DNA of 13,081 bases. Source: a virus (lineage: Duplodnaviria > Heunggongvirae > Uroviricota > Caudoviricetes). The notes beneath the pieces were generated by a model, which saw nothing but the letters and a program-made list of their open reading frames with translations, made no database searches and was not told the origin of the DNA. The translations under genes were made by a program, and so were the position numbers. How positions within the stretch are numbered: the stretch's first letter is position 1; each line of letters opens with the position of its first letter. The stretch lies in the IMG/VR virus record IMGVR_UViG_2568526681_000001. One strand, written 5' to 3'. This document shows, piece by piece, positions 3,001 through 12,160 of the stretch.

Positions 3001-3035
3001 CCCAGATCAATGACCAGGTTGGCTATCTGGTCCAT
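1..3035 (-). CDS. H: Tail tape measure protein (lambda gpH-like), C-terminus truncated by the window edge; at least 1011 codons
   Basis: The minus-strand frame is open from ATG at 3035 (GGAGG Shine-Dalgarno 8 nt upstream; in-frame TGA at 3072-3074 bounds the 5' end) to the window edge; I hand-translated both ends. The N-terminal part is Ala/Gln/Arg/Glu-rich (coiled-coil-like), followed by a Gly-rich hydrophobic segment (GMMLGGVIGGIAAAVYGLG). Near the C-terminus is FAFAKGAGVMGEAGPEAILPLRRGADGKLGVVA, which I recall as a conserved gpH motif. Position directly downstream of G/G-T fits. It is absent from the ORF track because it has no stop within the window. Confidence 0.85.
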   Translation of the reverse strand, partial: MDQIANLVIDLGIDAAEFKNEIPRIKNLLNGAASDAERSSARMQRFMERQAQAARQAAQAASSASAAASAHAQTAEKSARAHERMAREVEQTRHRMEALSQKMREEQAHARALAEAQDKAAAAFYRQIDSVKQASAGLQELQRIQQQIRQARNSGGIGQQDYLALISEVTAKTRVLTQAEEEATRQKVAFIRQLKEQATRLNLSSSELLRAKAAQLGVSSAAEVYIRKMEQAGKATHSLGLKSAAARQEIGVLIGELARGNLGALRGSGITLANRAGWIDTLMSPKGMMLGGVIGGIAAAVYGLGKAWYDGQKEGEEFNRQLSLTGHYAGVTAGQLWTLSRAISGNGITQHAAAGALAQVVGSGAFRGNDIGMVARAAAQMERSVGQSVSDTINQFKRLKDDPVNAAKALDNELHFLTATQLEQIRVLGEQGRSSDAARIAMSALAEETGRRTADIDNNLNALGSTLKYLSDLWSRFWDAAMNIGREDSLDEQIAALQEKVSRAKRLPWTASSSQVEYDQQRLNELQEKKRQKDLQDAKEQAERNYQEQQKRRNAENAALNRMNETEAARHQREIARINAMQYADQAVRDAAIQRENERYEKALASGKKKTRETRNDEATRLLLQYSQQQAQVEGQIAAARQSAGIATERMTEAHKQLLALQQRISDLDGKKLTADEKSVLARKDELIQALTLLDVKQQELQKQTALNELKKKTIQLTSQLAEEERAQRQQHDLDIATVGMGDQQRQRYQVQLSLRQKYQQQLEQLRRDSEQKGTYNTDDYRKAEQALTESLNRQLNENRRYWQQLEVVQGNWKNGVLRAFQDFTVDADNTAETAEQVFSSAFSNMGNGLATFVTTGKLNFKSFTSSVLSDMAKILAQATMMKSIKGIGSVLGFDLSSLSLNANGGIYQSADLSRYSGTVVNRPTFFAFAKGAGVMGEAGPEAILPLRRGADGKLGVVAQICGSGMAMFAPQYNIEINNDGMNGQIGPAALKVVYDLGKKAAADFMQQQSR

Positions 3036-3734
3036 AACGCACACCTCCGGAAATACCTTCCCCAAGATGCATCAGTTCTTCGTCCGTTCGCTCCGGTATC
3101 CCGTCCTCTTCCGGTAAAAGGCTGAAATCAGCCACCGCAGCATCACTGCTGCCGGACACCATTCTCACGATCAATGCCTTCAGCGAGGCAAACTGCGCAT
3201 CCATCCACACATCACTGAAGCTCTGCATCCGGAAATAATCGCCCCACTCACCAAGCTCAGTGGCCGACATTTCCGACAGCATCCGCCGCCAGTCTGCCCG
3301 CCGGAACTCCCGGGCAAGCCGCATGACAAACTGCATTTCCCGCGTCAGGACTTTTCCGGCGTCAGCACCTCATGCTCCAAATCCCCGGCATTCTCAATGG
3401 CCCCCATACCGCTCAGCGACAGAACCATCTCCGCCCCCGCTCCCAGGGCATCATACGACCATGTTGTAATAACGGATGCGCAAAGCGTCTCAACATCCTG
3501 AGACTGTTCCGCATTCCACAGTGAGCGGGAAACCAGCCAGGCATTGATATCCATCCCCATCCGCAGAAAAGCAATCTGTCGTTCAGCCTCCGGCAGTTCT
3601 CCCTCTTCGGCATCAAACTTTGCCGTTCGCTGCTGAACAAACGCCAGATATTCAATTCTCTGCAGCCCGGACAGCTCACTGAGCACCACGGACTGCTTTT
3701 CATAATTAAACGTGCTCTGTTTCAGAAACATCAT
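3007..3734 (-). CDS. Tail assembly chaperone G-T fusion, made by a programmed -1 ribosomal frameshift near the 3' end of G (T-frame part about 3007..3357)
   Basis: The T reading frame (track ORF 3007..3336) is exactly -1 relative to G. It is open upstream only as far as an in-frame TGA about 27 nt before the G stop, so any shift must occur in the last 8 codons of G. An A-rich heptamer G GAA AAG lies there. The G/T arrangement between V and H is conserved in lambda-like phages. The T-frame stop (3007-3009) overlaps the H start by 29 nt. Confidence 0.6.
3345..3734 (-). CDS. G: Tail assembly chaperone G (lambda gpG-like), about 129 aa
   Basis: Start ATG at 3734 (tandem ATGATG, GGTGGAGA Shine-Dalgarno upstream). 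The N-terminus MMFLKQSTFNYEKQSVVLSELSGLQRIEYLAF matches my recollection of lambda gpG (MFLK...TLSELSALQRIEHLA). Sits between V and H. Confidence 0.75.
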   Translation of the reverse strand: MMFLKQSTFNYEKQSVVLSELSGLQRIEYLAFVQQRTAKFDAEEGELPEAERQIAFLRMGMDINAWLVSRSLWNAEQSQDVETLCASVITTWSYDALGAGAEMVLSLSGMGAIENAGDLEHEVLTPEKS

Positions 3735-3791: not shown

Positions 3792-4535
3792 TTAACCTGC
3801 GGCGCTGACAGCCACCGTAGCCACTGCCACAAAATCGCCGTCAGAAGTCATGCCCACAATGCTGACACTGCCCTGCTTCACGCCTTTCACCGTGGCCACA
3901 AGCCCGTTCAGGGTCACCGTGGCAGTCTGTGGATCTGTCGAATGCACACTGATCGCTTTGTCACTGGCTCCGTCAGGTTTTACTGTAAAGGTCAGCGTGG
4001 TGGTTGCTCCCACTTTTACACTGGCAGATGCCGGTGCCACCGTCAGCCCGGTAACGCTCACTGTTTCAGTGCCTTCCTCTGCCAGATACGGACGCCCCAC
4101 ACCGCTGATTTTCACTGTGCGGGTCATCACGTCTTTTGAGGCAATGGTTTTACCCAGTGAGCTCAGCCAGCCACGGAAAACATCAACAGTGCCGTTGGGA
4201 TATTTGATACGAAACGCGCAGACTTCACCGGAGTCGAACAACTGAACCAGTTTTTTCTGCCCGCTGTCACCCGGACGCCAGGCCAGCGTCGCCGAAGTAT
4301 CACCAACGGATTTCTGCCCCTGGGTTGTTGTTTTCCAGTCTGCATCTTCATCATCGAGATAAGTGTCATCTTCTGCATCAGCGGTCATTTCGCCAGGTTG
4401 CAGATCCTTCACCATCGCAAGACGCAGCCAGTCAGTGTCCTGTAAAGGGTTCGCAAACGGATCGCCACGGCCGGTGTACATCCAGAACGTCGTTCCCGCA
4501 CCTTTCGTTTTTGCCAGTGGATTTGGTGTGGTCAT
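3792..4535 (-). CDS. V: Major tail protein (lambda gpV-like), 247 aa, with C-terminal Ig-like domain
   Basis: Start ATG at 4535 with a strong Shine-Dalgarno (TAAGGAGGTGGTA-ATG). The sequence MTTPNPLAKTKGAGTTFWMYTGRGDPFANPL...DDEDADW...GDTS.TLAW...KYPNGTVDVFRGW...VGRP matches recalled lambda gpV nearly motif for motif. The C-terminal ~90 aa (TVAPASASVKVGATTTLTFTVKPDG...) resembles the Ig-like (Big_2) domain of gpV. The track ORF start at 4610 is an upstream extension overlapping U and was rejected. Confidence 0.9.
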   Translation of the reverse strand: MTTPNPLAKTKGAGTTFWMYTGRGDPFANPLQDTDWLRLAMVKDLQPGEMTADAEDDTYLDDEDADWKTTTQGQKSVGDTSATLAWRPGDSGQKKLVQLFDSGEVCAFRIKYPNGTVDVFRGWLSSLGKTIASKDVMTRTVKISGVGRPYLAEEGTETVSVTGLTVAPASASVKVGATTTLTFTVKPDGASDKAISVHSTDPQTATVTLNGLVATVKGVKQGSVSIVGMTSDGDFVAVATVAVSAAG

Positions 4536-4545
4536 TACCACCTCC

Positions 4546-4947
4546 TTAATTCGTGTACGTGATCTGGTACGTGATTTCCGCCATCGCCCAGGTGGCCATC
4601 TCATTATCACGTTGATAGTTAAAACCGAGTGGGATCAGGGTATCGATGAGTCCGGAAAGTGCCGGTACATCATTCAGGGCCGGGAAAATGGTGCTCTCCA
4701 TCCACATATCCAGCTCTGAATCCGGTGCCTGTGCCCGGATGAAGACAGCAATATGCAGAACAGCCTGCCAGTCATCTTCATCCGTCATTTTTCCGGTGTA
4801 CTGAGCATCACTCAGCCACACCGCCACGGCAGGCAGTTCCTGCGCATCAACAAATGCCGGAAGCCCGTCAAAAAACGTGGCGCTGTCTCCACACTGTTCC
4901 CGAAGGCGTGCCAGTACGACCTGGCGGATTTGTGTATGTCGGTTCAT
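4546..4947 (-). CDS. U: Tail terminator protein (lambda gpU-like), about 133 aa
   Basis: The sequence ...SATFFDGLPAFVDAQELPAVAVWLSDAQYTG...WQAVLHIAVFIRAQAPDSELDMWMESTIFPALNDVPALSGLIDTL...TYQITY matches recalled lambda gpU (GATFFDGRPAVFDEADFPAVAVYLTGAEYTG...PDSELDAWMES...TYVITYEM). I chose ATG at 4947 (MNRHTQ..., aligns to lambda MKHTELR and forms an ATGA overlap with the Z stop); ATG at 4959 is an alternative. The U stop TAA is embedded in the V Shine-Dalgarno. Confidence 0.88.
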   Translation of the reverse strand: MNRHTQIRQVVLARLREQCGDSATFFDGLPAFVDAQELPAVAVWLSDAQYTGKMTDEDDWQAVLHIAVFIRAQAPDSELDMWMESTIFPALNDVPALSGLIDTLIPLGFNYQRDNEMATWAMAEITYQITYTN

Positions 4948-5534
4948 CGGGTCAGCCATAACCTCAGTTGTTGTTTCAGTGCATACCCCAGCTGTTTCGG
5001 CATTTCCGCAGTAATGATGCGGTTGCGGGCATCATGGAATGCCTGTGTCAGCGGTCCGGACAGCGGGATTTTCACTACCTCCACAGGAAGACGATTTTTT
5101 CTTGGCCTGCCCTGATGGTCATGCCCTGTTGCAAAACGCGCTTCAGGAAGACGCCTCAGAACATGCCAGCGGCCATTCGCCAGTTGCTGAACAAATGCCC
5201 CCCGGAAAAAGTATTTTCCCACTCTCAGTCCTTCACCAGCACGTCGCCGTGTTGTGTTCAGTTTGATGGCGGGCAGATTGCCCCGGTTAACGCGGATTCT
5301 GGCCGTCATTTTTCCTGACGGACTGGCTTTAAACACCCGGACACGCTGACGTACCAGTTTCAGGGGGATCCCTTTCACCTGGTTATCTCCCGCAACGGTA
5401 TTCCCGGCAACCTGCCGGGTGGCAACCGAGACCGCTTTCTGTGCCACACGGTTTATCGCCCATGCGCTGGCCTGTGGCACCATACGGGTATCAAGGCTGT
5501 TCAGATTGCGGATGGCATTCTCAAGCCCCTTCAT
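4944..5534 (-). CDS. Z: Tail completion protein (lambda gpZ-like), 196 aa
   Basis: N-terminus MKGLENAIRNLNSL...AINRVAQ... and C-terminus ...QQLANGRWHV...VKIP...PKQLGYALKQQLRLWLTR match recalled lambda gpZ (MAIKGLEQAVENL...INRVAS...QQLKNGRWHV...VKIP...PKELGYALQHQLRM). AGAGG Shine-Dalgarno 6 nt upstream of ATG 5534. Confidence 0.85.
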   Translation of the reverse strand: MKGLENAIRNLNSLDTRMVPQASAWAINRVAQKAVSVATRQVAGNTVAGDNQVKGIPLKLVRQRVRVFKASPSGKMTARIRVNRGNLPAIKLNTTRRRAGEGLRVGKYFFRGAFVQQLANGRWHVLRRLPEARFATGHDHQGRPRKNRLPVEVVKIPLSGPLTQAFHDARNRIITAEMPKQLGYALKQQLRLWLTR

Positions 5535-5545
5535 CCCACACCTCT

Positions 5546-5821
5546 TTACTCAATAAAGATCATTGGCTTACCATTAAAGCGTTCATGCCGTGTGACCGTC
5601 CATTGTTGTCCGTCATAAACAACGCGATCCCCGCGCCGTGGGCGGTATCCCGAAGAAAATACCACCAGAGATACCGCAGGTCCGGACAGAGCATTCAGCT
5701 CTGCCAGTGTTTCTCCCGGGATCACAGTCATATCGACATCATTAATACAGGCCGTTCTTCCCATTCTCCTGACAGTTACCGAGTCCATACGGGAACACAC
5801 AGACTGAAAGGGGGACATCAT
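5546..5821 (-). CDS. Putative head-tail joining protein (gpFII-like), 91 aa
   Basis: Small ORF in the position lambda FII occupies, between head genes and Z. The C-terminal region ([15 protein letters not shown]) loosely resembles the FII C-terminus as I recall it. Its start ATG overlaps the stop of the upstream gene (ATGA). Assignment is by position and weak similarity only. Confidence 0.5.
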
Positions 5822-6288
5822 GAACCACCCCGATCGCCTTTTTCGCCCTTCGGCCCCTGAGGTCCTGCCGGGCCACGCTCACCTGTATCACCCTTTGGCC
5901 CCTGAGGTCCCGGCTCTCCCTTTTCTCCTCTCGGGCCCGTGTCCCCCTTTTCTCCCCTGGCACCACCAAAGTTAATCCTGACAGCGACGACATCACTCCC
6001 GGTACCAGCCTCTTCCCAGACAACCCCGACCAGCGGATCAGAGCCGCTGTTAGTCAGCTGAACTTTTCCGGACTTCAGATAAACCTTCTTACCCGTTTTC
6101 ATATCATCCGTTTTCAGCTTAGGCAGCATAAACACACCTTCGGTCATGCCGTCGCCTGTTTCACCCTGTGGAATATCGGTCAGCGCCACCGCAAAAACAT
6201 CACCCACCTGCACCAGATCTCCGCTGCTGATGGCTGCACTGGCAACAATCGCCACCGTTTTTCCTTCTTCTACAAAATTCTTTGCCAT
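5818..6288 (-). CDS. Putative capsid decoration protein (DUF2190-like N-terminal domain) with a C-terminal collagen-like Gly-X-Y region, 156 aa
   Basis: ATG at 6288 with GGAGA Shine-Dalgarno 5 nt upstream (the track start at 6333 is TTG inside a terminator hairpin and was rejected). N-terminus [36 protein letters not shown]... resembles small phage head-decoration proteins that sit just after the major capsid gene. The C-terminus is 15 uninterrupted G-X-Y triplets. Function assigned by position and recalled family resemblance, without a search. Confidence 0.5.
5821..5964 (-). repeat. Collagen-like Gly-X-Y coding repeat (15 consecutive triplets) forming the C-terminus of the putative decoration protein
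   Basis: Translation reads [48 protein letters not shown]. At nucleotide level the plus strand shows near-repeats such as ggcccctgaggtcc (twice) and cccttttctcc. Confidence 0.8.
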
Positions 6289-6301
6289 AACTGTCTCCAC
6301 A

Positions 6302-6320
6302 CAGCCCCGTTCAGGGGCTG
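6302..6320 (-). other. Stable stem-loop in the 5' UTR of the decoration gene, between the candidate terminator and the Shine-Dalgarno
   Basis: Perfect inverted repeat cagcccc-gttca-ggggctg (7-bp stem, 5-nt loop). It has no following U-tract and ends 8 nt before the GGAGA Shine-Dalgarno of the decoration gene. Confidence 0.5.
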
Positions 6321-6331
6321 ATTTCAGGTAC

Positions 6332-6350
6332 AAAAAAAGCCCTTACGGGC
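6332..6350 (-). terminator. Candidate weak intrinsic terminator after the capsid gene
   Basis: On the minus-strand RNA: GCCC-GUAA-GGGC (4-bp GC stem, GNRA-type tetraloop) followed by UUUUUUU, starting 25 nt after the capsid stop. The stem is short, so efficiency is uncertain. Confidence 0.4.
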
Positions 6351-6374
6351 CATCAGAGTTGTTGTCTGCGATGT

Positions 6375-8333
6375 TTACGCCGTACATTTCACCAGACCGC
6401 GGTGATCAACTGGCGCGACACCGGCGTCAATACGCACTTTCGTTGTCACGCCATCCACACTGAAGCCCTCCATCTGATCAATATATGGCGTATCCACACC
6501 GTTGAGATAAGCCACTTCAATCGTATCGGAGCCTTTTGACGCAGCCAGGTAGAAGGTGGTCTGGCTGTTATCATCAAGACGAGGCTCTGCAATAACGGTC
6601 GCAAAATCTTTCACCGGGTTAATAATACCGGCGTTAATGTCAGCCCCCTTGACACTTGAGGAGCGAATGACCTGGTTAGCAACAGACTCCATCGCCGTCG
6701 GTACCAGTACGAACGCAGGACGAATATTCAGATGACGCTCCCCCTCTTTCTGAACGCGCATCAACTGGCGGGCTTTATCCAGCGATGCCACGTCCATTGC
6801 AGCGCTCTCCAGTACGTTTGCATGTTTCGCTTTATCGAACAGACTTACATTATCTGTGGAGATTTTCGGGTTAGACGTCAGAATGGCATAAACCAGATCG
6901 GCAATAGTGGATTTCGCCGCACGGCCCAGTTTCATCGGGACATCGGTCAGCATATTCAGATCATCATTGATAATGGCCTGACGGGTGATACTGAACAGCT
7001 CGCCATAGGTCGCCAGTGCAATAGTGGCCTGTTTATCTCCGGTGGTGACGTATTTATATTCCGCCCCTTCACGCACCTGACGCAGAGCACTGAAGCCCCC
7101 CATACCCACACGATGGGCAATTTTAAAATCAGACAACTGACCTTTCCGCGTCCACTGTTCATAGGTTTCAGGGGCATCTTCCCAGCCCTGCAGAATGGCT
7201 TTGTTCGCAACATCCAGCAGAATATTACCGAAGTCAGACGTACTGTGTGTGAACGCCGCACCGACCATCTGCATCGGGTTATAACCGGAAACCCCAATAC
7301 CCCGTTCAGTCAGTGACATACGGGCATATTCACGCAGGGTCATCCCGTTGTAGACATTATCACGTTCGGTTTTTTCAAATCCGGCACGCGCCATCAGCGC
7401 CTGGCGGATCCCGTCCCCCACAAAATTACCGTTACCGGCATAAATATGAGCCGGGGTATTTTTATTCGATGGTGAAAATTCCTTACCCATTTCATTCAGT
7501 AATTTCTCACGGGCTTGATCCAGCGAGCACTCCGGATCAGAAAGACAACTGGCCTGTAATGTCTGATAACGTCCACCAAACATGCCAAACAGATCATTAA
7601 TACCACTCACGCGTGCTTTTTGCTCAGCCAGCACCTGCGCACGGATACTGTTTTCATCCACCACGGGTGCTGCTGCCTGTACTGGCGCCCGGGAGGCTGC
7701 AGGTTCATCATCCTGTACGCGTGGAGCACTGTTGCGTGGCGCAGTAATCATGTTTCGAATAGATTCCGGCATCTTTTTAAATTCCTCTGTACGTTTTGAC
7801 TGAATACATGCCATTGCCTTAACGGCTGGCGTCACCTGGTCAGCAAATCCATGTGCCAGACATTCGGCACCGGACATCCAGGTCTCATCCGCCAGCATGG
7901 CAGCAATTTCATCGGTGGTTTTCCCGGTTTTCTGTGCATAAGCGGGTAACAGAACCGCCTCAACTTTATCGAGCAGGTCGGCATAGGTGCGCATGTCCTC
8001 CGCATCACCGCCCGTAAAGCCAAATGGTTTATGAATCATCATGAAAGTGTTTTCCGGCATAATGACCGGGTTTCCCACCATCGCAATGACCGACGCCATT
8101 GACGCCGCCACACCGTCGACATAAACGGTAATGGACGCACCATGTGTTTTCAGCGCATTAAAAATGGCGATGCCTTCAAAGACATCACCACCCGGTGAAT
8201 TAATATGGAGATTAATGTGGGTGATATCTCCCAGTGCATTCAGATCACTGATAAACTGCTTCGCTGTAACACCCCAGAAACCAATCTCGTCATAAATATA
8301 AATATCCGCGTCACTCTGGTGACCAGCCTGCAT
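6375..8333 (-). CDS. Fused ClpP-like prohead serine protease / linker (scaffold-like) / major capsid protein, about 652 aa
   Basis: N-terminal domain has ClpP-like motifs: ...IYIYDEIGFWGV...INSPGGDVFEGIAIFNAL...VDGVAASMASVIAMVG (Ser motif) ...MMIHKP (His motif). A Pro/Ala/Gln-rich linker follows (APRNSAPRVQDDEPAASRAPVQAAAPVVD...), then a ~330 aa C-terminal domain typical of phage major capsid proteins. Single uninterrupted frame. I chose ATG at 8333, 13 nt after the portal stop; the track start at 8594 would overlap portal by ~250 nt. The Shine-Dalgarno at 8333 is weak, so the start is uncertain. Confidence 0.82.
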   Translation of the reverse strand: MQAGHQSDADIYIYDEIGFWGVTAKQFISDLNALGDITHINLHINSPGGDVFEGIAIFNALKTHGASITVYVDGVAASMASVIAMVGNPVIMPENTFMMIHKPFGFTGGDAEDMRTYADLLDKVEAVLLPAYAQKTGKTTDEIAAMLADETWMSGAECLAHGFADQVTPAVKAMACIQSKRTEEFKKMPESIRNMITAPRNSAPRVQDDEPAASRAPVQAAAPVVDENSIRAQVLAEQKARVSGINDLFGMFGGRYQTLQASCLSDPECSLDQAREKLLNEMGKEFSPSNKNTPAHIYAGNGNFVGDGIRQALMARAGFEKTERDNVYNGMTLREYARMSLTERGIGVSGYNPMQMVGAAFTHSTSDFGNILLDVANKAILQGWEDAPETYEQWTRKGQLSDFKIAHRVGMGGFSALRQVREGAEYKYVTTGDKQATIALATYGELFSITRQAIINDDLNMLTDVPMKLGRAAKSTIADLVYAILTSNPKISTDNVSLFDKAKHANVLESAAMDVASLDKARQLMRVQKEGERHLNIRPAFVLVPTAMESVANQVIRSSSVKGADINAGIINPVKDFATVIAEPRLDDNSQTTFYLAASKGSDTIEVAYLNGVDTPYIDQMEGFSVDGVTTKVRIDAGVAPVDHRGLVKCTA

Positions 8334-8346
8334 CCTGAACCAGGAA

Positions 8347-9852
8347 TTATTCTTCGGACTGGTTGTCGGTGTGCTGCGGCTCCTGTCGTTTCGTTGCGGC
8401 ACTGCTGCCTCCTTTATCACTGGCCGGATCGGTATCAAATACCAGATCCAGCTTGCGGTTTTCATCAATTTCGGCCTTACGCCGACGTTTGACATCATCC
8501 GGATTACGACCACCTGCACGTACCCAGTCTGATTCTGTCGCCGCTCCACCACGAATCTGGATTTTCCAGGCCTCAGCCTCCTTGACAGGATCAATCCACG
8601 GCATGACCGGACCAGAATAGGTTGCGTTATATAGTGTTTTCATATCCACATCCGACGTAATTTTCAGCAATCCCGCGGCCACAACCATATTCAGCCATGC
8701 CCGGTACACCGGACGGGTTACAGCACCAATAAAACAGTCCTGCAGGATCAGATAACCATCTGTGGACTCAACCAGCTCCTGTCGCTGGGCACTGTAGGTA
8801 CCGTTATAATTACGTGCTGCACTGGAAAAACTCAGACGTGTGCCCGCCGCCACGGCCCGCAACTGACCATTACGAAAAGTTTCCAGGTTAGTGTTAGGCC
8901 GATCAGATTTGACCATGCCGATATCTTCCCCCTTACGCAGATCGTCATAAATAATGCCGGGTGTGATATGCAGTTCCCGATCATTATCTTTATTCGTCAC
9001 GGGGGCCTCATAATCCTGCCCGTCTCCTTTACGGATATACAGCCCCAGTGCTGCAGCAATGCGCGCCGCTGTCAGCTCGGAATCTTCATATTCCTTAAGC
9101 GCGCTGATCCGCATCAGCACACCTGACAACATGGATGTGCCACGCGTCTGATGCAGCCGGCGGGTAAACTTCAGATGCACCATATTTTCAGCGGCGATCT
9201 CTTTGGTATCACTCTGTCGCCCGGTGACCGGATAATTTTTATAAACCAGGTATTTTTTCGGCCTGCCCCACTCATCCAGAAAAACCCCCTGATTCATTCC
9301 CGCAGACTCATCACTGAACATGGGTACAAAATCCGGCTCCATTGCCTCGAGCCAGAAAGGCACGCCGGCAGTCCGCACCAGTCCGGCCCCTGCACCACTG
9401 ACCATCTGGGCAAACACTTCACCATCACGTAACCAGGTACGCAGCAACAAACGCTCGAGCATGGGGCGCGTATGCTGCCCGGTCACATCCGGGCTGACAG
9501 ACCATTCCGCCCACAAACGACGGATAATCATTGCCAGGTCTGTAGCCATATCACCGTTTTTCAGTAATGGCTGGGGTTCAACAATGATCCCTTTTGCGCC
9601 AATCACCCGCTCCTCAAGCTTGTCGAAAGCACCGATGACAAGGTCATGATTGATATCCAGAAAACGGGCCTGCTCCCGCAGGGATACCGCCCCGTACTTA
9701 CTGAGCTGGTCGGCAGAACGGTTTTCCCGTCGGGCTTTGTGTGTGCGGGTGGGTTTCACTGCCTCATAGGCCTGAATTAATGCTCTTGACCGCAACCTCG
9801 CAGCTTTCCAGCCTGGTGAAAAAGCACCAATCACATCATCCAGAATTGCCAT
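8347..9852 (-). CDS. B: Portal protein (lambda gpB-like), 501 aa
   Basis: Size and position (after terminase large subunit and W) fit. The internal region ...LSFSSAARNYNGTYSAQRQELVESTDGYLILQDCFIGAVTRPVYRAWL... parallels recalled lambda gpB (...SYEQLSRNYAQMSYSTARASANESWAYFMGRRKFVASRQASQMFLCWL...). Its start ATG overlaps the W stop (ATGA). Confidence 0.85.
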   Translation of the reverse strand: MAILDDVIGAFSPGWKAARLRSRALIQAYEAVKPTRTHKARRENRSADQLSKYGAVSLREQARFLDINHDLVIGAFDKLEERVIGAKGIIVEPQPLLKNGDMATDLAMIIRRLWAEWSVSPDVTGQHTRPMLERLLLRTWLRDGEVFAQMVSGAGAGLVRTAGVPFWLEAMEPDFVPMFSDESAGMNQGVFLDEWGRPKKYLVYKNYPVTGRQSDTKEIAAENMVHLKFTRRLHQTRGTSMLSGVLMRISALKEYEDSELTAARIAAALGLYIRKGDGQDYEAPVTNKDNDRELHITPGIIYDDLRKGEDIGMVKSDRPNTNLETFRNGQLRAVAAGTRLSFSSAARNYNGTYSAQRQELVESTDGYLILQDCFIGAVTRPVYRAWLNMVVAAGLLKITSDVDMKTLYNATYSGPVMPWIDPVKEAEAWKIQIRGGAATESDWVRAGGRNPDDVKRRRKAEIDENRKLDLVFDTDPASDKGGSSAATKRQEPQHTDNQSEE

Positions 9853-10064
9853 CAGAACCTCGCCAGTTTATATCCCGGATCCCCCCGTCGCCGCGCAGTC
9901 ATGGCAGCAAGACGCCGCTCCCACTCCTGACGCCCCCGTCGGATCTCGGACAGATTTTCCATGGTCATCTGCTGACCATTAAAAGTGACGGATTTTCCGT
10001 CCAGAACTGCCATTTCCGCATCGATATAACGCTGGATCATGGCTTCAATATCATTCTGGTTCAT
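9852..10064 (-). CDS. W: Head completion / head-tail joining protein (lambda gpW-like), about 70 aa
   Basis: Small ORF between terminase large subunit and portal. ...AEMAVLDGKSVTFNGQQMTMENLSEI...ARRRGDPGY resembles recalled lambda gpW (...[31 protein letters not shown]...TQRRRGPAGF). I chose ATG at 10064 (6-nt spacing from GGAGG, ATGA overlap with the A stop); ATG at 10070 is the alternative. Confidence 0.7.
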   Translation of the reverse strand: MNQNDIEAMIQRYIDAEMAVLDGKSVTFNGQQMTMENLSEIRRGRQEWERRLAAMTARRRGDPGYKLARF

Positions 10065-12160
10065 AACCATCCTCCGGAAGTCACCCAGGGATTTTCCTCA
10101 TCGGGTACCGTTTTTTTTCGTTTCTTTTTTCTGTCCGGCTGGAGCACTGGCTCCGGCAGAACAGGTTGCTCAGTGTTATCACTGACGCACTCCAGCCAGG
10201 TTTCCCTGCATGCCCATTCTGGCGCATCCGGCCACTGAATTTTCTCGTAACCATGCAGAATGACCAGAGCCTCGGCATACACCATCAGGTCAAAGGCTTC
10301 GTTAGCCCCCCGCCCTGGTTTGCTCCACTTTCCGTCACTGCTCCGCTCTTCATACGTCAGTTCGTCGTAAAACCAGCTCCCCAGCCAGTCAGGAAAATGC
10401 ACATAGCCGGGACCCGGTGAATCACGCCATAACGCATTATTAACCCGGTCTTTCAGGGCATCCGTCTGAAGAAGCCAGAGTGGCACATCACCTGCGGCCT
10501 GCGCCCGTCGGCCCGTTCGTCCGGTGTTATCAGGGAATGTACGGGTGATCAGTTTTGCTCGCCGGATGCTGTCGCCCTTAAACAGGTAAATACTTTTACC
10601 AAGTCCATCACGACGGCAACGACGCCAGAATTTATAGGCATTATCAGTGACCCCGTCTTCACCGCCGGAGTCCACCGCCATTGCCATCAGTCGCATTTGT
10701 TGAGAAGGATCGGAGGCCAGCGGCCAGCTTTTATGAAAAACATCCGTCAGCAGGACATCCCAGTCTTCCGGATAGCTGGCCGGATCAATTCGCTGGCTCT
10801 CCCCGTCGCTGTCACCGCGCAATGACTGCGTGATGTTGTAACGATCAATAATCCAGCGTTCGCCACGACTGCCATAGCCCGTTACCTGAACCACAAAACG
10901 GCGATGACGTCCCGCCTGCACATCCACTGTCGCCACAAGGAAATTAACGCCATCCGGCACACTGCGTGAAGGAACTGGCTCTGCCCGCTGCTCAAGCAGT
11001 TCACTTTTTCGTTGCTCCATGCTGGCGCGGGGAAGATAAGGCAATCCCCAGTCGGTGTTGATAACCGCCCTGAGTGTTTCTTCGCTTCCTGTCGCTTCAT
11101 ACTCCTGTTCTGCAGTCAGTAATTTGTAAACCAGTTGCGCCCAGGTCTGATACGCAGCAGCTGGCCCTTCCATCCAGAAGCTGGCAATCCTTGAATTACG
11201 TGGCGTTCCGGTAACATTCCCCTCCATGTCAATGTGCTCACCATCCCGCAACCAGACCCCACGTCCGTTCAGTTCACGTTTCATGTCTGAGGTGATTCGG
11301 TTACCACAATGAGGACATAATATATGAGCCGATTTACTGGCTTTTACAGGATCAGGATTGTCACGATACCCCGTCATAGTCTCCATGGATGGCTGAAAAT
11401 ACCCCCCACAATCCGGACAGGGCCAGTACCAGCGACGACGATCACCACGGTTATAGAGTGACAGGATCCCCGTAGTGGGGGGAGCTTCATGTGGAGAGGT
11501 TTTCCGCCACTTACTGTCCGAAATTTCGCGTCCGGGTGAACTCTCCACAAGTGTCATCCCTGCTGACATAAACGTCGTGGTACGTTTGGAAGCCAGGGAG
11601 AAACCATCACCTTCACCATCAATATCATCAGGCCAGCGATCATAATCTGTTAATGCTACAAATCGATAATCAGAAGACGACATTATATTAACTGACGGCC
11701 AACCAATTTTTAGATAATTACCCGCCTTAAAAGTCTTATCATGGACGTTATTATCATTGGTTCGTGGGCTCATTCGCCGAACAACCTCTTTACTGACCCG
11801 GAATGTGCGATCAAGGCGTTTTCTGGAATGCTCCCTTGCTTTCTCTTCTGTCATTTGAATTAACAAAAAGTCTGCAGGTTCACAAACCACGCTGTAAACA
11901 ATCCAGCCATCAATTAATCCAACCGTTTTTCCTGTTCGCGCTGGCCCGACAAAAACAACCGCATCATAGTCACGGGAAGACAAACAATTCATTGGCTCAA
12001 TGATGTAAGGCGTCAAAGATGCATCCCATGGCAATGAACTTCCCCCACCCAGTGGCACTCGCATATATTTCTCAACAGCTTCTGCCACTGGCATTCTTGT
12101 GGGTGGTTTTAGTAATTCGGAAACATCACGCCTGATAGCACTTGCAGAAGCAAAGGTCAT
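10061..12160 (-). CDS. A: Terminase large subunit (lambda gpA family), 699 aa
   Basis: Length is typical for the gpA family. Contains a P-loop-like VFVGPARTGKT and a zinc-ribbon-like CPDCGG...CPHCG, with acidic nuclease-like motifs in the C-terminal half. Start ATG overlaps the Nu1-like stop (ATGA). Sits directly downstream of the small subunit and cos. Confidence 0.9.
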   Translation of the reverse strand: MTFASASAIRRDVSELLKPPTRMPVAEAVEKYMRVPLGGGSSLPWDASLTPYIIEPMNCLSSRDYDAVVFVGPARTGKTVGLIDGWIVYSVVCEPADFLLIQMTEEKAREHSRKRLDRTFRVSKEVVRRMSPRTNDNNVHDKTFKAGNYLKIGWPSVNIMSSSDYRFVALTDYDRWPDDIDGEGDGFSLASKRTTTFMSAGMTLVESSPGREISDSKWRKTSPHEAPPTTGILSLYNRGDRRRWYWPCPDCGGYFQPSMETMTGYRDNPDPVKASKSAHILCPHCGNRITSDMKRELNGRGVWLRDGEHIDMEGNVTGTPRNSRIASFWMEGPAAAYQTWAQLVYKLLTAEQEYEATGSEETLRAVINTDWGLPYLPRASMEQRKSELLEQRAEPVPSRSVPDGVNFLVATVDVQAGRHRRFVVQVTGYGSRGERWIIDRYNITQSLRGDSDGESQRIDPASYPEDWDVLLTDVFHKSWPLASDPSQQMRLMAMAVDSGGEDGVTDNAYKFWRRCRRDGLGKSIYLFKGDSIRRAKLITRTFPDNTGRTGRRAQAAGDVPLWLLQTDALKDRVNNALWRDSPGPGYVHFPDWLGSWFYDELTYEERSSDGKWSKPGRGANEAFDLMVYAEALVILHGYEKIQWPDAPEWACRETWLECVSDNTEQPVLPEPVLQPDRKKKRKKTVPDEENPWVTSGGWL

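Follow-up and report, generated by a model that had tools for sequence, protein, structure and literature searches.

A capsid cement protein with a collagen-like C-terminal tail in an mEp460-type lambdoid prophage

The 13,081-nucleotide (nt) stretch of Caudoviricetes DNA analysed here (IMG/VR record IMGVR_UViG_2568526681_000001; hereafter the window) encodes a 156-amino-acid (aa) protein in which a phage cement, or head-decoration, domain is followed by a collagen-like tail. The best explanation is that its gene is a functional cement allele of an mEp460/cdtI-type lambdoid E. coli prophage, bearing a short head fibre. The domain architecture, predicted fold, genomic context, recurrence of the allele and mosaic origin are established here, and we consider it probable that this is a real cement protein whose tail makes a triple-helical spike on virions. 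The combination of cement and collagen is undescribed, yet it is an expected recombination of two familiar parts. Literature on collagen-like decoration proteins and on DUF2190 with collagen yielded no account of such a fusion.

Domain architecture and predicted fold

The cement gene runs from an ATG at 6288-6286 to a TGA at 5820-5818 on the minus strand. Its features are as follows.

5818..6288, minus strand: complete coding sequence of the tailed capsid cement protein, 156 aa plus stop (open reading frame (ORF) list, sequence, translation)
6295..6298, minus strand: GGAG Shine-Dalgarno sequence, 6 nt 5' of the ATG (sequence)
5965..6288, minus strand: cement/head-decoration domain, residues 1-108, with a flexible N-terminal arm at residues 1-10 (predicted fold)
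5821..5964, minus strand: collagen-like tail, residues 109-156 (sequence, PF01391, identity to tail-fibre collagen)
5828..5910, strand not assigned: degenerate internal duplication of 45 nt (five triplets), 5828-5865 and 5873-5910, 82% identical (self-comparison)
5818..5821, minus strand: ATGA overlap between the cement stop and the start of the downstream Gifsy-2-family gene (sequence)

The N-terminal domain matches Phage_cement_2 (PF09956, formerly DUF2190) with an E-value of 7e-21 and 75 bits against a cut-off of 24, residues 7-105 aligning to profile positions 2-103 of 103. It also matches PHROG 122, 'head decoration' (E 1e-45, profile positions 1-108 of 109). The protein's Pfam matches are limited to Phage_cement_2, Collagen and, below threshold, Phage_cement. 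A first-pass annotation of the window, made from the sequence alone, had likened this region to head-decoration proteins and placed the gene immediately after the major capsid gene. The two profiles and the predicted fold described below bear out the first claim; the second agrees with the ClpP-major capsid fusion gene found directly upstream, which ends at 6375.

Homologues of the domain in lambdoid phages and prophages include mEp460 gp06, cdtI gp06, Gifsy-2 STM1034 and VT1-Sakai H0018, all of the Phage_cement_2 family, and residues 1-91 of the window protein are ~90-100% identical to mEp460 gp06. Like its lambdoid relatives, the gene follows the ClpP-capsid gene, precedes the same downstream gene and has the same terminator-like hairpin upstream. 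Unlike them, it encodes 48 additional collagen residues, and replacement has affected both the last ~17 residues of the domain and the beginning of the next gene.

The usual family trait is a single domain of 105-121 aa that ends after the motif V-x-V-[KR]-[IL]-N, a pattern from which the window protein departs. In an alignment of 13 relatives from E. coli, Salmonella, Edwardsiella, Citrobacter and phages of Pasteurella, Citrobacter and Enterovibrio, the relatives stop one residue past this motif, whereas the window protein reads VAVRIN, then F-G, then collagen. Because the relatives end just after the motif and the collagen starts there, the cement domain is, on this alignment, complete and the tail a pure C-terminal addition. 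Among 66 close-family clusters and the best 120 of 729 profile matches, all relatives judged intact fall within the usual length range and are tail-less, and PF01391 occurs only in the tailed cluster. The longer relatives inspected proved to be frameshifts, fusions or alternative starts.

From G109 the tail consists of 15 unbroken G-X-Y triplets, whose count and coordinates had been given exactly at first pass, followed by a sixteenth, G-G-S. Glycine thus occupies every third position, and the protein ends 3 residues past the last full triplet. A chance G-X-Y pattern can be dismissed because the Collagen profile (PF01391) scores 31.2 bits, above its curated cut-off of 27.2. The 48 residues include 7 Pro (15%), 9 Lys or Arg and 8 Asp or Glu, and contain five Lys-Gly-Asp/Glu motifs (three KGD and two KGE), two of them at the extreme C-terminus. 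This composition, with its Pro, charged pairs and KGE/KGD motifs, is compatible with a stable non-hydroxylated helix. The guanine-cytosine content of the tail DNA is 66%, against 51% for the cement-domain DNA. A 93-aa ORF in an alternative frame (5742..6023, minus strand) was rejected as a second product, being a by-product of the GC-rich repeat. A 181-aa database protein, P0018, is a frameshifted cement protein that reads through into this same 5742-6023 frame, most likely owing to a sequencing or mutational frameshift.

An AlphaFold monomer model of residues 1-112, built on a 46-sequence alignment, has a predicted local distance difference test (pLDDT) score of 87.6. It consists entirely of beta structure, and confidence drops only in residues 1-10 and the first tail residues. 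An earlier full-length AF2 monomer from a 13-sequence alignment (pLDDT 53) was discarded. A Protein Data Bank search with the single cement sequence gave no match, and one with the cement profile gave a weak match to phiCD508 gp48 only (E 0.19), with which the fold comparison later agreed. That comparison matches the model to the trimeric, beta-tulip-related capsid decoration fold, with the following scores.

phiCD508 gp48 (template-modelling (TM) score 0.73): 11.2
HFTV1 capsid-stabilisation protein (CSP): 10.4
Pam3 cement protein: 9.2
Sf11 gp40: 8.9
TW1 stabilising protein: 8.6
E217 gp24: 6.6
phi29 head-fibre gp8.5 N-base (Foldseek E 2e-4): 6.1
YSD1_16: 5.7
lambda gpD: 4.8

Decoration or minor capsid proteins of FCWL1, XM1 and BB1 rank between TW1 and phi29, and herpesvirus triplex proteins rank below lambda gpD. 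Lambda gpD and phage 21 SHP belong to a different sequence family and overlap the fold only in part, over about 55-65 residues; we know of no natural fibrous extension on either.

Published structures of these relatives are trimeric. phiCD508 gp48 is present in 420 copies, as trimers on a T=7 head, and each trimer contacts nine capsid subunits; the protein also has an N-terminal arm. HFTV1 CSP likewise forms trimers on the capsid, and its authors relate it to gp8.5, TW1 and Pam3. A review table lists gpD, SHP, TW1 gp56, YSD1_16 and gp8.5 as trimers. The trimers of the structural relatives occupy three-fold or quasi-three-fold capsid sites, and by analogy we infer that the window protein binds capsids as trimers at such sites. 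The cement base is the sole candidate trimerisation and nucleation unit for the tail. A trimeric collagen helix fits this symmetry because the structural relatives bind capsids as trimers. The same argument had been made at first pass from decoration proteins in general, and it holds for phiCD508 gp48, HFTV1 CSP, phi29 gp8.5, gpD and TW1, all trimeric on capsids.

The cement base fold is also matched, over ~115-133 columns, by nine longer viral proteins of 323-945 aa in the BFVD database (e.g. H9YRV0, A0A6J5N4C7, A0A6J5PNV2 and A0A6G8R632). One of the nine is annotated with a major-tropism-determinant N-terminal domain and one as tail-fibre-like. From their models, these proteins may be other decoration bases with long fibre extensions, and base-plus-extension is perhaps a recurrent design.

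Recurrence, annotation and origin of the tailed allele

Exactly this 156-aa protein occurs on 174 database contigs (251 index blocks), among them chromosomes of 3.9-5.6 Mb. Its 471-nt gene is the same, with 0-4 substitutions, at twelve independent loci and in the window. Such wide recurrence shows that the tail is no assembly artefact; a sequencing, assembly or frame error in the repeat, which the first-pass annotation had listed among the findings that would refute its reading, is excluded as the source of the tail. GenBank holds the tailed protein as GAB0674122.1, annotated 'hypothetical protein'. Ten loci were fetched around the exact protein, eight of which (L003, L004 and L007-L012) have complete head and tail modules as far as the contig extends.

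The allele is nevertheless rare in the collections searched. An mEp460-type locus is present in 1837 of 5426 complete E. coli genomes, and the tail DNA in 2 of these 1837, namely GF4 (chicken meat) and Ch1 (chicken faeces). The tail is absent from all 50,697 phage records. An exact-junction pattern retrieved one IMG/VR contig, with the same allele, and had no matches in species-representative genomes; a back-translated junction pattern had none in metagenomes of the Joint Genome Institute. Profile-based locus searches returned six loci from genome contigs, none of tailed length, and 80 near-identical tail-less copies from IMG/VR. Four degenerate IMG/VR scans, for V-x-V-[KR]-x-N followed by 0-3 residues and six Gly at three-residue spacing, a motif restricted to this subfamily, found only the known allele and unrelated tape-measure, fibre and giant-virus ORFs. 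A representative-library search with the full-length query was dominated by long collagen proteins and is uninformative on distant cement-collagen fusions.

A different collagen-rich gene was noticed in IMGVR_UViG_3300037117_000244 (L115 1291-1566, minus strand). Its 91-aa ORF consists mostly of G-X-Y repeats (GKPGDQ...) and lies upstream of ORFs of 64 aa and 151 aa, the latter of which we take by eye, from its sequence, to be a head-completion protein. The 91-aa product may be a collagen capsid accessory protein like SPP1 gp12 in an unrelated phage.

In both complete genomes the RefSeq Prokaryotic Genome Annotation Pipeline (PGAP) ends the cement gene at codon 106 and calls it a pseudogene, with the label 'incomplete; missing C-terminus'. 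The truncated genes are in Ch1 NZ_CP127316.1 (L002 8472-8789) and GF4 NZ_CP172217.1 (L113 1223-1540), and 150 nt of collagen-coding DNA is left unannotated in each. The full protein is therefore absent from RefSeq proteins. Most probably the flag arises from a family model that ends at residue ~106.

The repeat-coding DNA had been expected at first pass to vary in length between related phages, and a comparison of repeat number across prophages had been proposed. Thirteen copies were compared (the window, Ch1, the ten exact look-up loci and the IMG/VR copy), and all 13 are 471 nt long. As the ten look-up loci share the protein by construction, the independent length test lies in Ch1, the IMG/VR copy and the cluster members, among which no length difference was found. 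Tandem Repeats Finder detects no tandem DNA array in the repeat, and the only internal repetition is the one degenerate 45-nt duplication. The expectation of a length-variation hotspot is not upheld: repeat number does not vary, and the polymorphism seen is presence or absence of the whole tail, on a replaced patch of DNA. Among the copies, the tail DNA has five substitutions, four of them synonymous and one changing Asp to Glu at an X position. If 26% of sites are synonymous and substitution is neutral, the binomial P for at least four of five being synonymous is 0.019, which suggests purifying selection on the tail, although on very small numbers.

Compared with mEp460, the window is 96.8% identical upstream of the patch (6001-8200) and 92% downstream (3988-5791). 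The patch itself is delimited as follows.

5792..6000, minus strand: core of the replaced patch relative to mEp460-type prophages; no blastn counterpart there, where mEp460 has 58 nt (blastn)

At the protein level, divergence spans cement codon 92 to ~codon 26 of the next gene (~5745-6015), after which identity returns. Of 5426 complete E. coli genomes, 2 have the divergent flanks, and in both the tail accompanies them. Because both flanks occur only with the tail, the ~210-270-nt patch would have arrived as a unit by recombination, from a related unsampled phage, whose cement gene was presumably already tailed. The alternative that tail-fibre DNA was inserted directly into an mEp460 gene was rejected, as the flanks are also divergent and linked to the tail alone. 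Transfer as a unit would explain why the reading frame and the stop/start coupling are intact. In mEp460 the same junction overlaps by 8 nt; judged from the ATGA, translational coupling with the downstream Gifsy-2-family gene is preserved in the window.

The nearest relatives of the tail are the first collagen triplets of E. coli 'prophage tail fiber N-terminal domain-containing' proteins. Identity to these is 80% over 46 aa, ungapped, and ~77% over 129 nt (E 4e-16). Unrelated collagens in a large library are mostly 44-64% identical to the tail. This kinship suggests that a head protein has taken over a tail-fibre module. The tailed allele now sits in mosaic genomes. Relative to window 8350-12160, the carriers L002, L004 and L010 have portal, W-like and (in L004) terminase genes that are only 79-85% identical, while their capsid, cement and tail genes are 97-100% identical, with a sharp mosaic boundary between packaging and capsid genes. 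Thus the allele travels with the capsid gene through mosaic genomes.

The proposed head fibre and competing explanations

We propose that the base of the protein would bind the expanded capsid as trimers, its flexible N-terminal arm touching the major capsid protein. The three C-termini, held at the three-fold axis, would then zip their 45-48-residue tails into one collagen triple helix. Collagen geometry gives 0.286 nm per residue, and 45-48 residues correspond to a rod of ~13-14 nm. Pro, together with interchain salt bridges at the five KGE/KGD motifs, would stabilise the helix in the absence of hydroxyproline. Salt bridges of this kind are reported to cluster at collagen C-termini, where they aid nucleation and register (PMC11923368). 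A T=7 head, to which the 37-47-kb complete genomes of phage relatives and the analogy with phiCD508 point, would carry ~140 spikes. The helix would clamp each cement trimer, raising its avidity for the capsid, and would form a charged fringe on the head with no distal knob. Adhesion, if any, would occur via the helix surface itself, as assumed for SPP1 gp12. Weak multivalent adhesion or conditioning of the surface, the roles put forward for phi29 gp8.5 and SPP1 gp12, may be the likeliest function, and stabilisation is also a candidate benefit; an essential structural role is less probable.

Three known systems resemble parts of this arrangement. In phi29 gp8.5, the base comprises residues 1-110 and trimerises at quasi-three-fold sites, from which residues 117-280 run outward from the head as a trimeric fibre. 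The window protein shares the fold of the gp8.5 N-base, the base-then-fibre layout and a junction at the same place (window residue ~108). It differs in that the gp8.5 fibre is a 164-residue helix-turn-helix supercoil rather than collagen, that there is no sequence similarity, and that the gp8.5 base docks on Ig-like domains of the capsid protein; phi29 is also a podovirus of a Gram-positive host. The window C-terminus is not homologous to gp8.5 residues 117-280, and the protein shares an architecture with gp8.5 rather than belonging to its family.

SPP1 gp12 is likewise a small capsid-surface protein that forms a trimer with a central collagen-like fold. It binds expanded capsids only, is non-essential and binds in a temperature-reversible manner. 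It differs from the window protein in that it is 64 aa long, has no cement or beta-tulip domain, binds at hexamer centres (quasi-six-fold) and is encoded upstream of the capsid gene. gp12 has about 8 G-X-Y repeats. The third system comprises the E. coli prophage EPcl side tail fibres, whose collagen domain is related in sequence to the window tail (Ghosh et al. 2012). One of them, the collagen-like protein EPclA, forms a true triple helix with a melting temperature of 42 C, without hydroxyproline (PMC3368898). EPcl proteins differ in having PfN, coiled-coil and PfC trimerisation domains, none of which Pfam finds in the window protein, and a much longer collagen; they are tail fibres, whereas in the window the collagen forms the end of a head protein.

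Several observations weigh against a head fibre. The allele is rare and has no isolated phage, a pattern that a neutral or mildly harmful passenger could also produce. Rearranged or degraded prophages occur among the carriers (GF4, and L005, which is rearranged), and in L006 the distal tail genes are fragmented. The selection test rests on five substitutions. Expression, incorporation into virions and triple-helix formation are predicted here from sequence, and a helix of sixteen triplets that lack hydroxyproline may have little stability to spare at 37-42 C. The protein also lacks the distal globular domain that is usual in dedicated adhesins.

Much of this would fit a tail that is translated, stays disordered or polyproline-II-like, and is tolerated on this fold without any function. 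The helix would be short, with neither hydroxyproline nor a distal domain, and in the full-length AF2 monomer the tail is unstructured and of low confidence, though this is expected of any single collagen chain. In phage display, fusions to the C-terminus of lambda gpD are likewise tolerated. Such a passenger would not be expected to hold 16 perfect triplets with zero Gly interruptions, nor to show substitutions biased to synonymous sites. KGD/KGE motifs with 15% Pro are typical of stable bacterial collagens, a trimeric base would supply the nucleation that short collagens need, and SPP1 gp12 is described as collagen-like trimers on capsids. On balance we regard a functionless tail as somewhat unlikely.

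A defective allele, in which a scar of illegitimate recombination impairs decoration and the carriers are decaying prophages, would agree with the PGAP flag in both complete RefSeq genomes, with the rearrangements in GF4 and L005, and with the frameshifted terminase and tail genes of the Ch1 prophage. It sits poorly with a cement domain that is complete to its natural end and an extension that is in frame, with the stop overlapping the next start and operon coupling kept. Terminase, portal, capsid and tail genes are intact in most carriers, and the allele is common to prophages with different portal and terminase modules, the latter being a point in favour of a functional allele as well. We judge decay to be very improbable. 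Still more so, to the point of being hardly credible, is an arrangement in which the tails lie on the shell and pair with neighbouring trimers or the capsid protein as a collagen 'net' cement. Proteins of the same fold do use extended arms across capsid subunits, as in the phiCD508 gp48 trimer with its nine capsid proteins, and a reach of ~13 nm exceeds a rough estimate of the spacing between neighbouring three-fold sites. Three chains on one axis, however, are far likelier to pair mutually, and the fibre of phi29, the one solved case of this base fold with a C-terminal fibre, projects radially. Moreover, the capsid protein is an ordinary mEp460-type allele (97-100% identical), with no sign of co-adaptation.

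A triple-helical spike on a functional cement protein thus remains the explanation we prefer. In a more speculative extension of it, which we think quite unlikely, the spikes are a switchable surface trait of gut prophages. The ~140 charged helices would melt near body temperature, the virion would act as a collagen mimic that sticks to mucus, to animal collagen-binding receptors or to the bacterial surface, and tailed and tail-less prophages would represent a natural adherence polymorphism. This idea draws on the melting of EPclA at 42 C, the temperature-reversible binding of SPP1 gp12 and the chicken sources of both complete-genome carriers.

Neighbouring genes and significance

The window belongs to a lambdoid late operon. 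Its packaging and head part encodes a DUF1441 protein, a lambda-type large terminase, a small W-like protein, a lambda-family portal, the ClpP/capsid fusion and the cement protein. After the cement gene come the Gifsy-2-family head-tail protein and then homologues of lambda Z, U, V (with Big_2), G and T. The immediate neighbours of the cement gene are as follows.

6375..8402 (mechanical ORF to 8594), minus strand: ClpP-like prohead protease/major capsid fusion gene, 675 aa in the related loci L003-L012 (PF00574 and PF25209)
6338..6351, minus strand: terminator-like hairpin (GGCCC-GTAA-GGGCT) and T-run between the capsid and cement genes (sequence)
5546..5821, minus strand: downstream Gifsy-2-family head-tail gene, PF13856/phrog_153, its first ~26 codons inside the replaced patch (profiles)

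The order of capsid then cement gene is also found in mEp460, mEp043, Gifsy-2, Pmp14, a Vibrio phage and Chris1. In mEp460 and mEp043 the annotation places a rho-independent terminator at this position between the capsid and cement genes, and the hairpin may adjust the capsid:cement expression ratio in the late operon. Sources disagree on the downstream gene (5546-5821): Pfam (Gifsy-2) calls it an 'ATP-binding sugar transporter from pro-phage', PGAP a 'DNA breaking-rejoining protein' and PHROG a 'minor tail protein'. Judged by its place in the operon, it may be a head-tail joining protein, and the Pfam and PGAP names look wrong.

Two further observations concern the tail genes. The homologues of the lambda tail-assembly chaperones G and T (window 3010-3731, minus strand) are adjacent and in different frames; adjacent G and T genes in different frames are a classic site of programmed -1 frameshifting. 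The lambda V-like major tail protein (window 3795-4535, minus strand) has a C-terminal Big_2 Ig-like domain, which would be a second surface-exposed module of adhesion type on the virion besides the collagen tail.

If the helix forms on virions, this would be, to our knowledge, the first natural collagen fibre directly on a cement protein of beta-tulip type. It would join the base-plus-fibre design of phi29 gp8.5 with the collagen capsid binder SPP1 gp12, and would indicate that phages shift fibre modules between tail and head proteins. Pseudogene labelling by the RefSeq pipeline systematically hides such domain gains from protein databases. A naturally tolerated 48-residue, putatively trimeric extension also informs capsid-display engineering on this cement family. 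Finally, the near-identical tailed and tail-less prophages form a natural pair, in which a role of head fibres in stability, adsorption and gut adherence is testable by a one-codon change.

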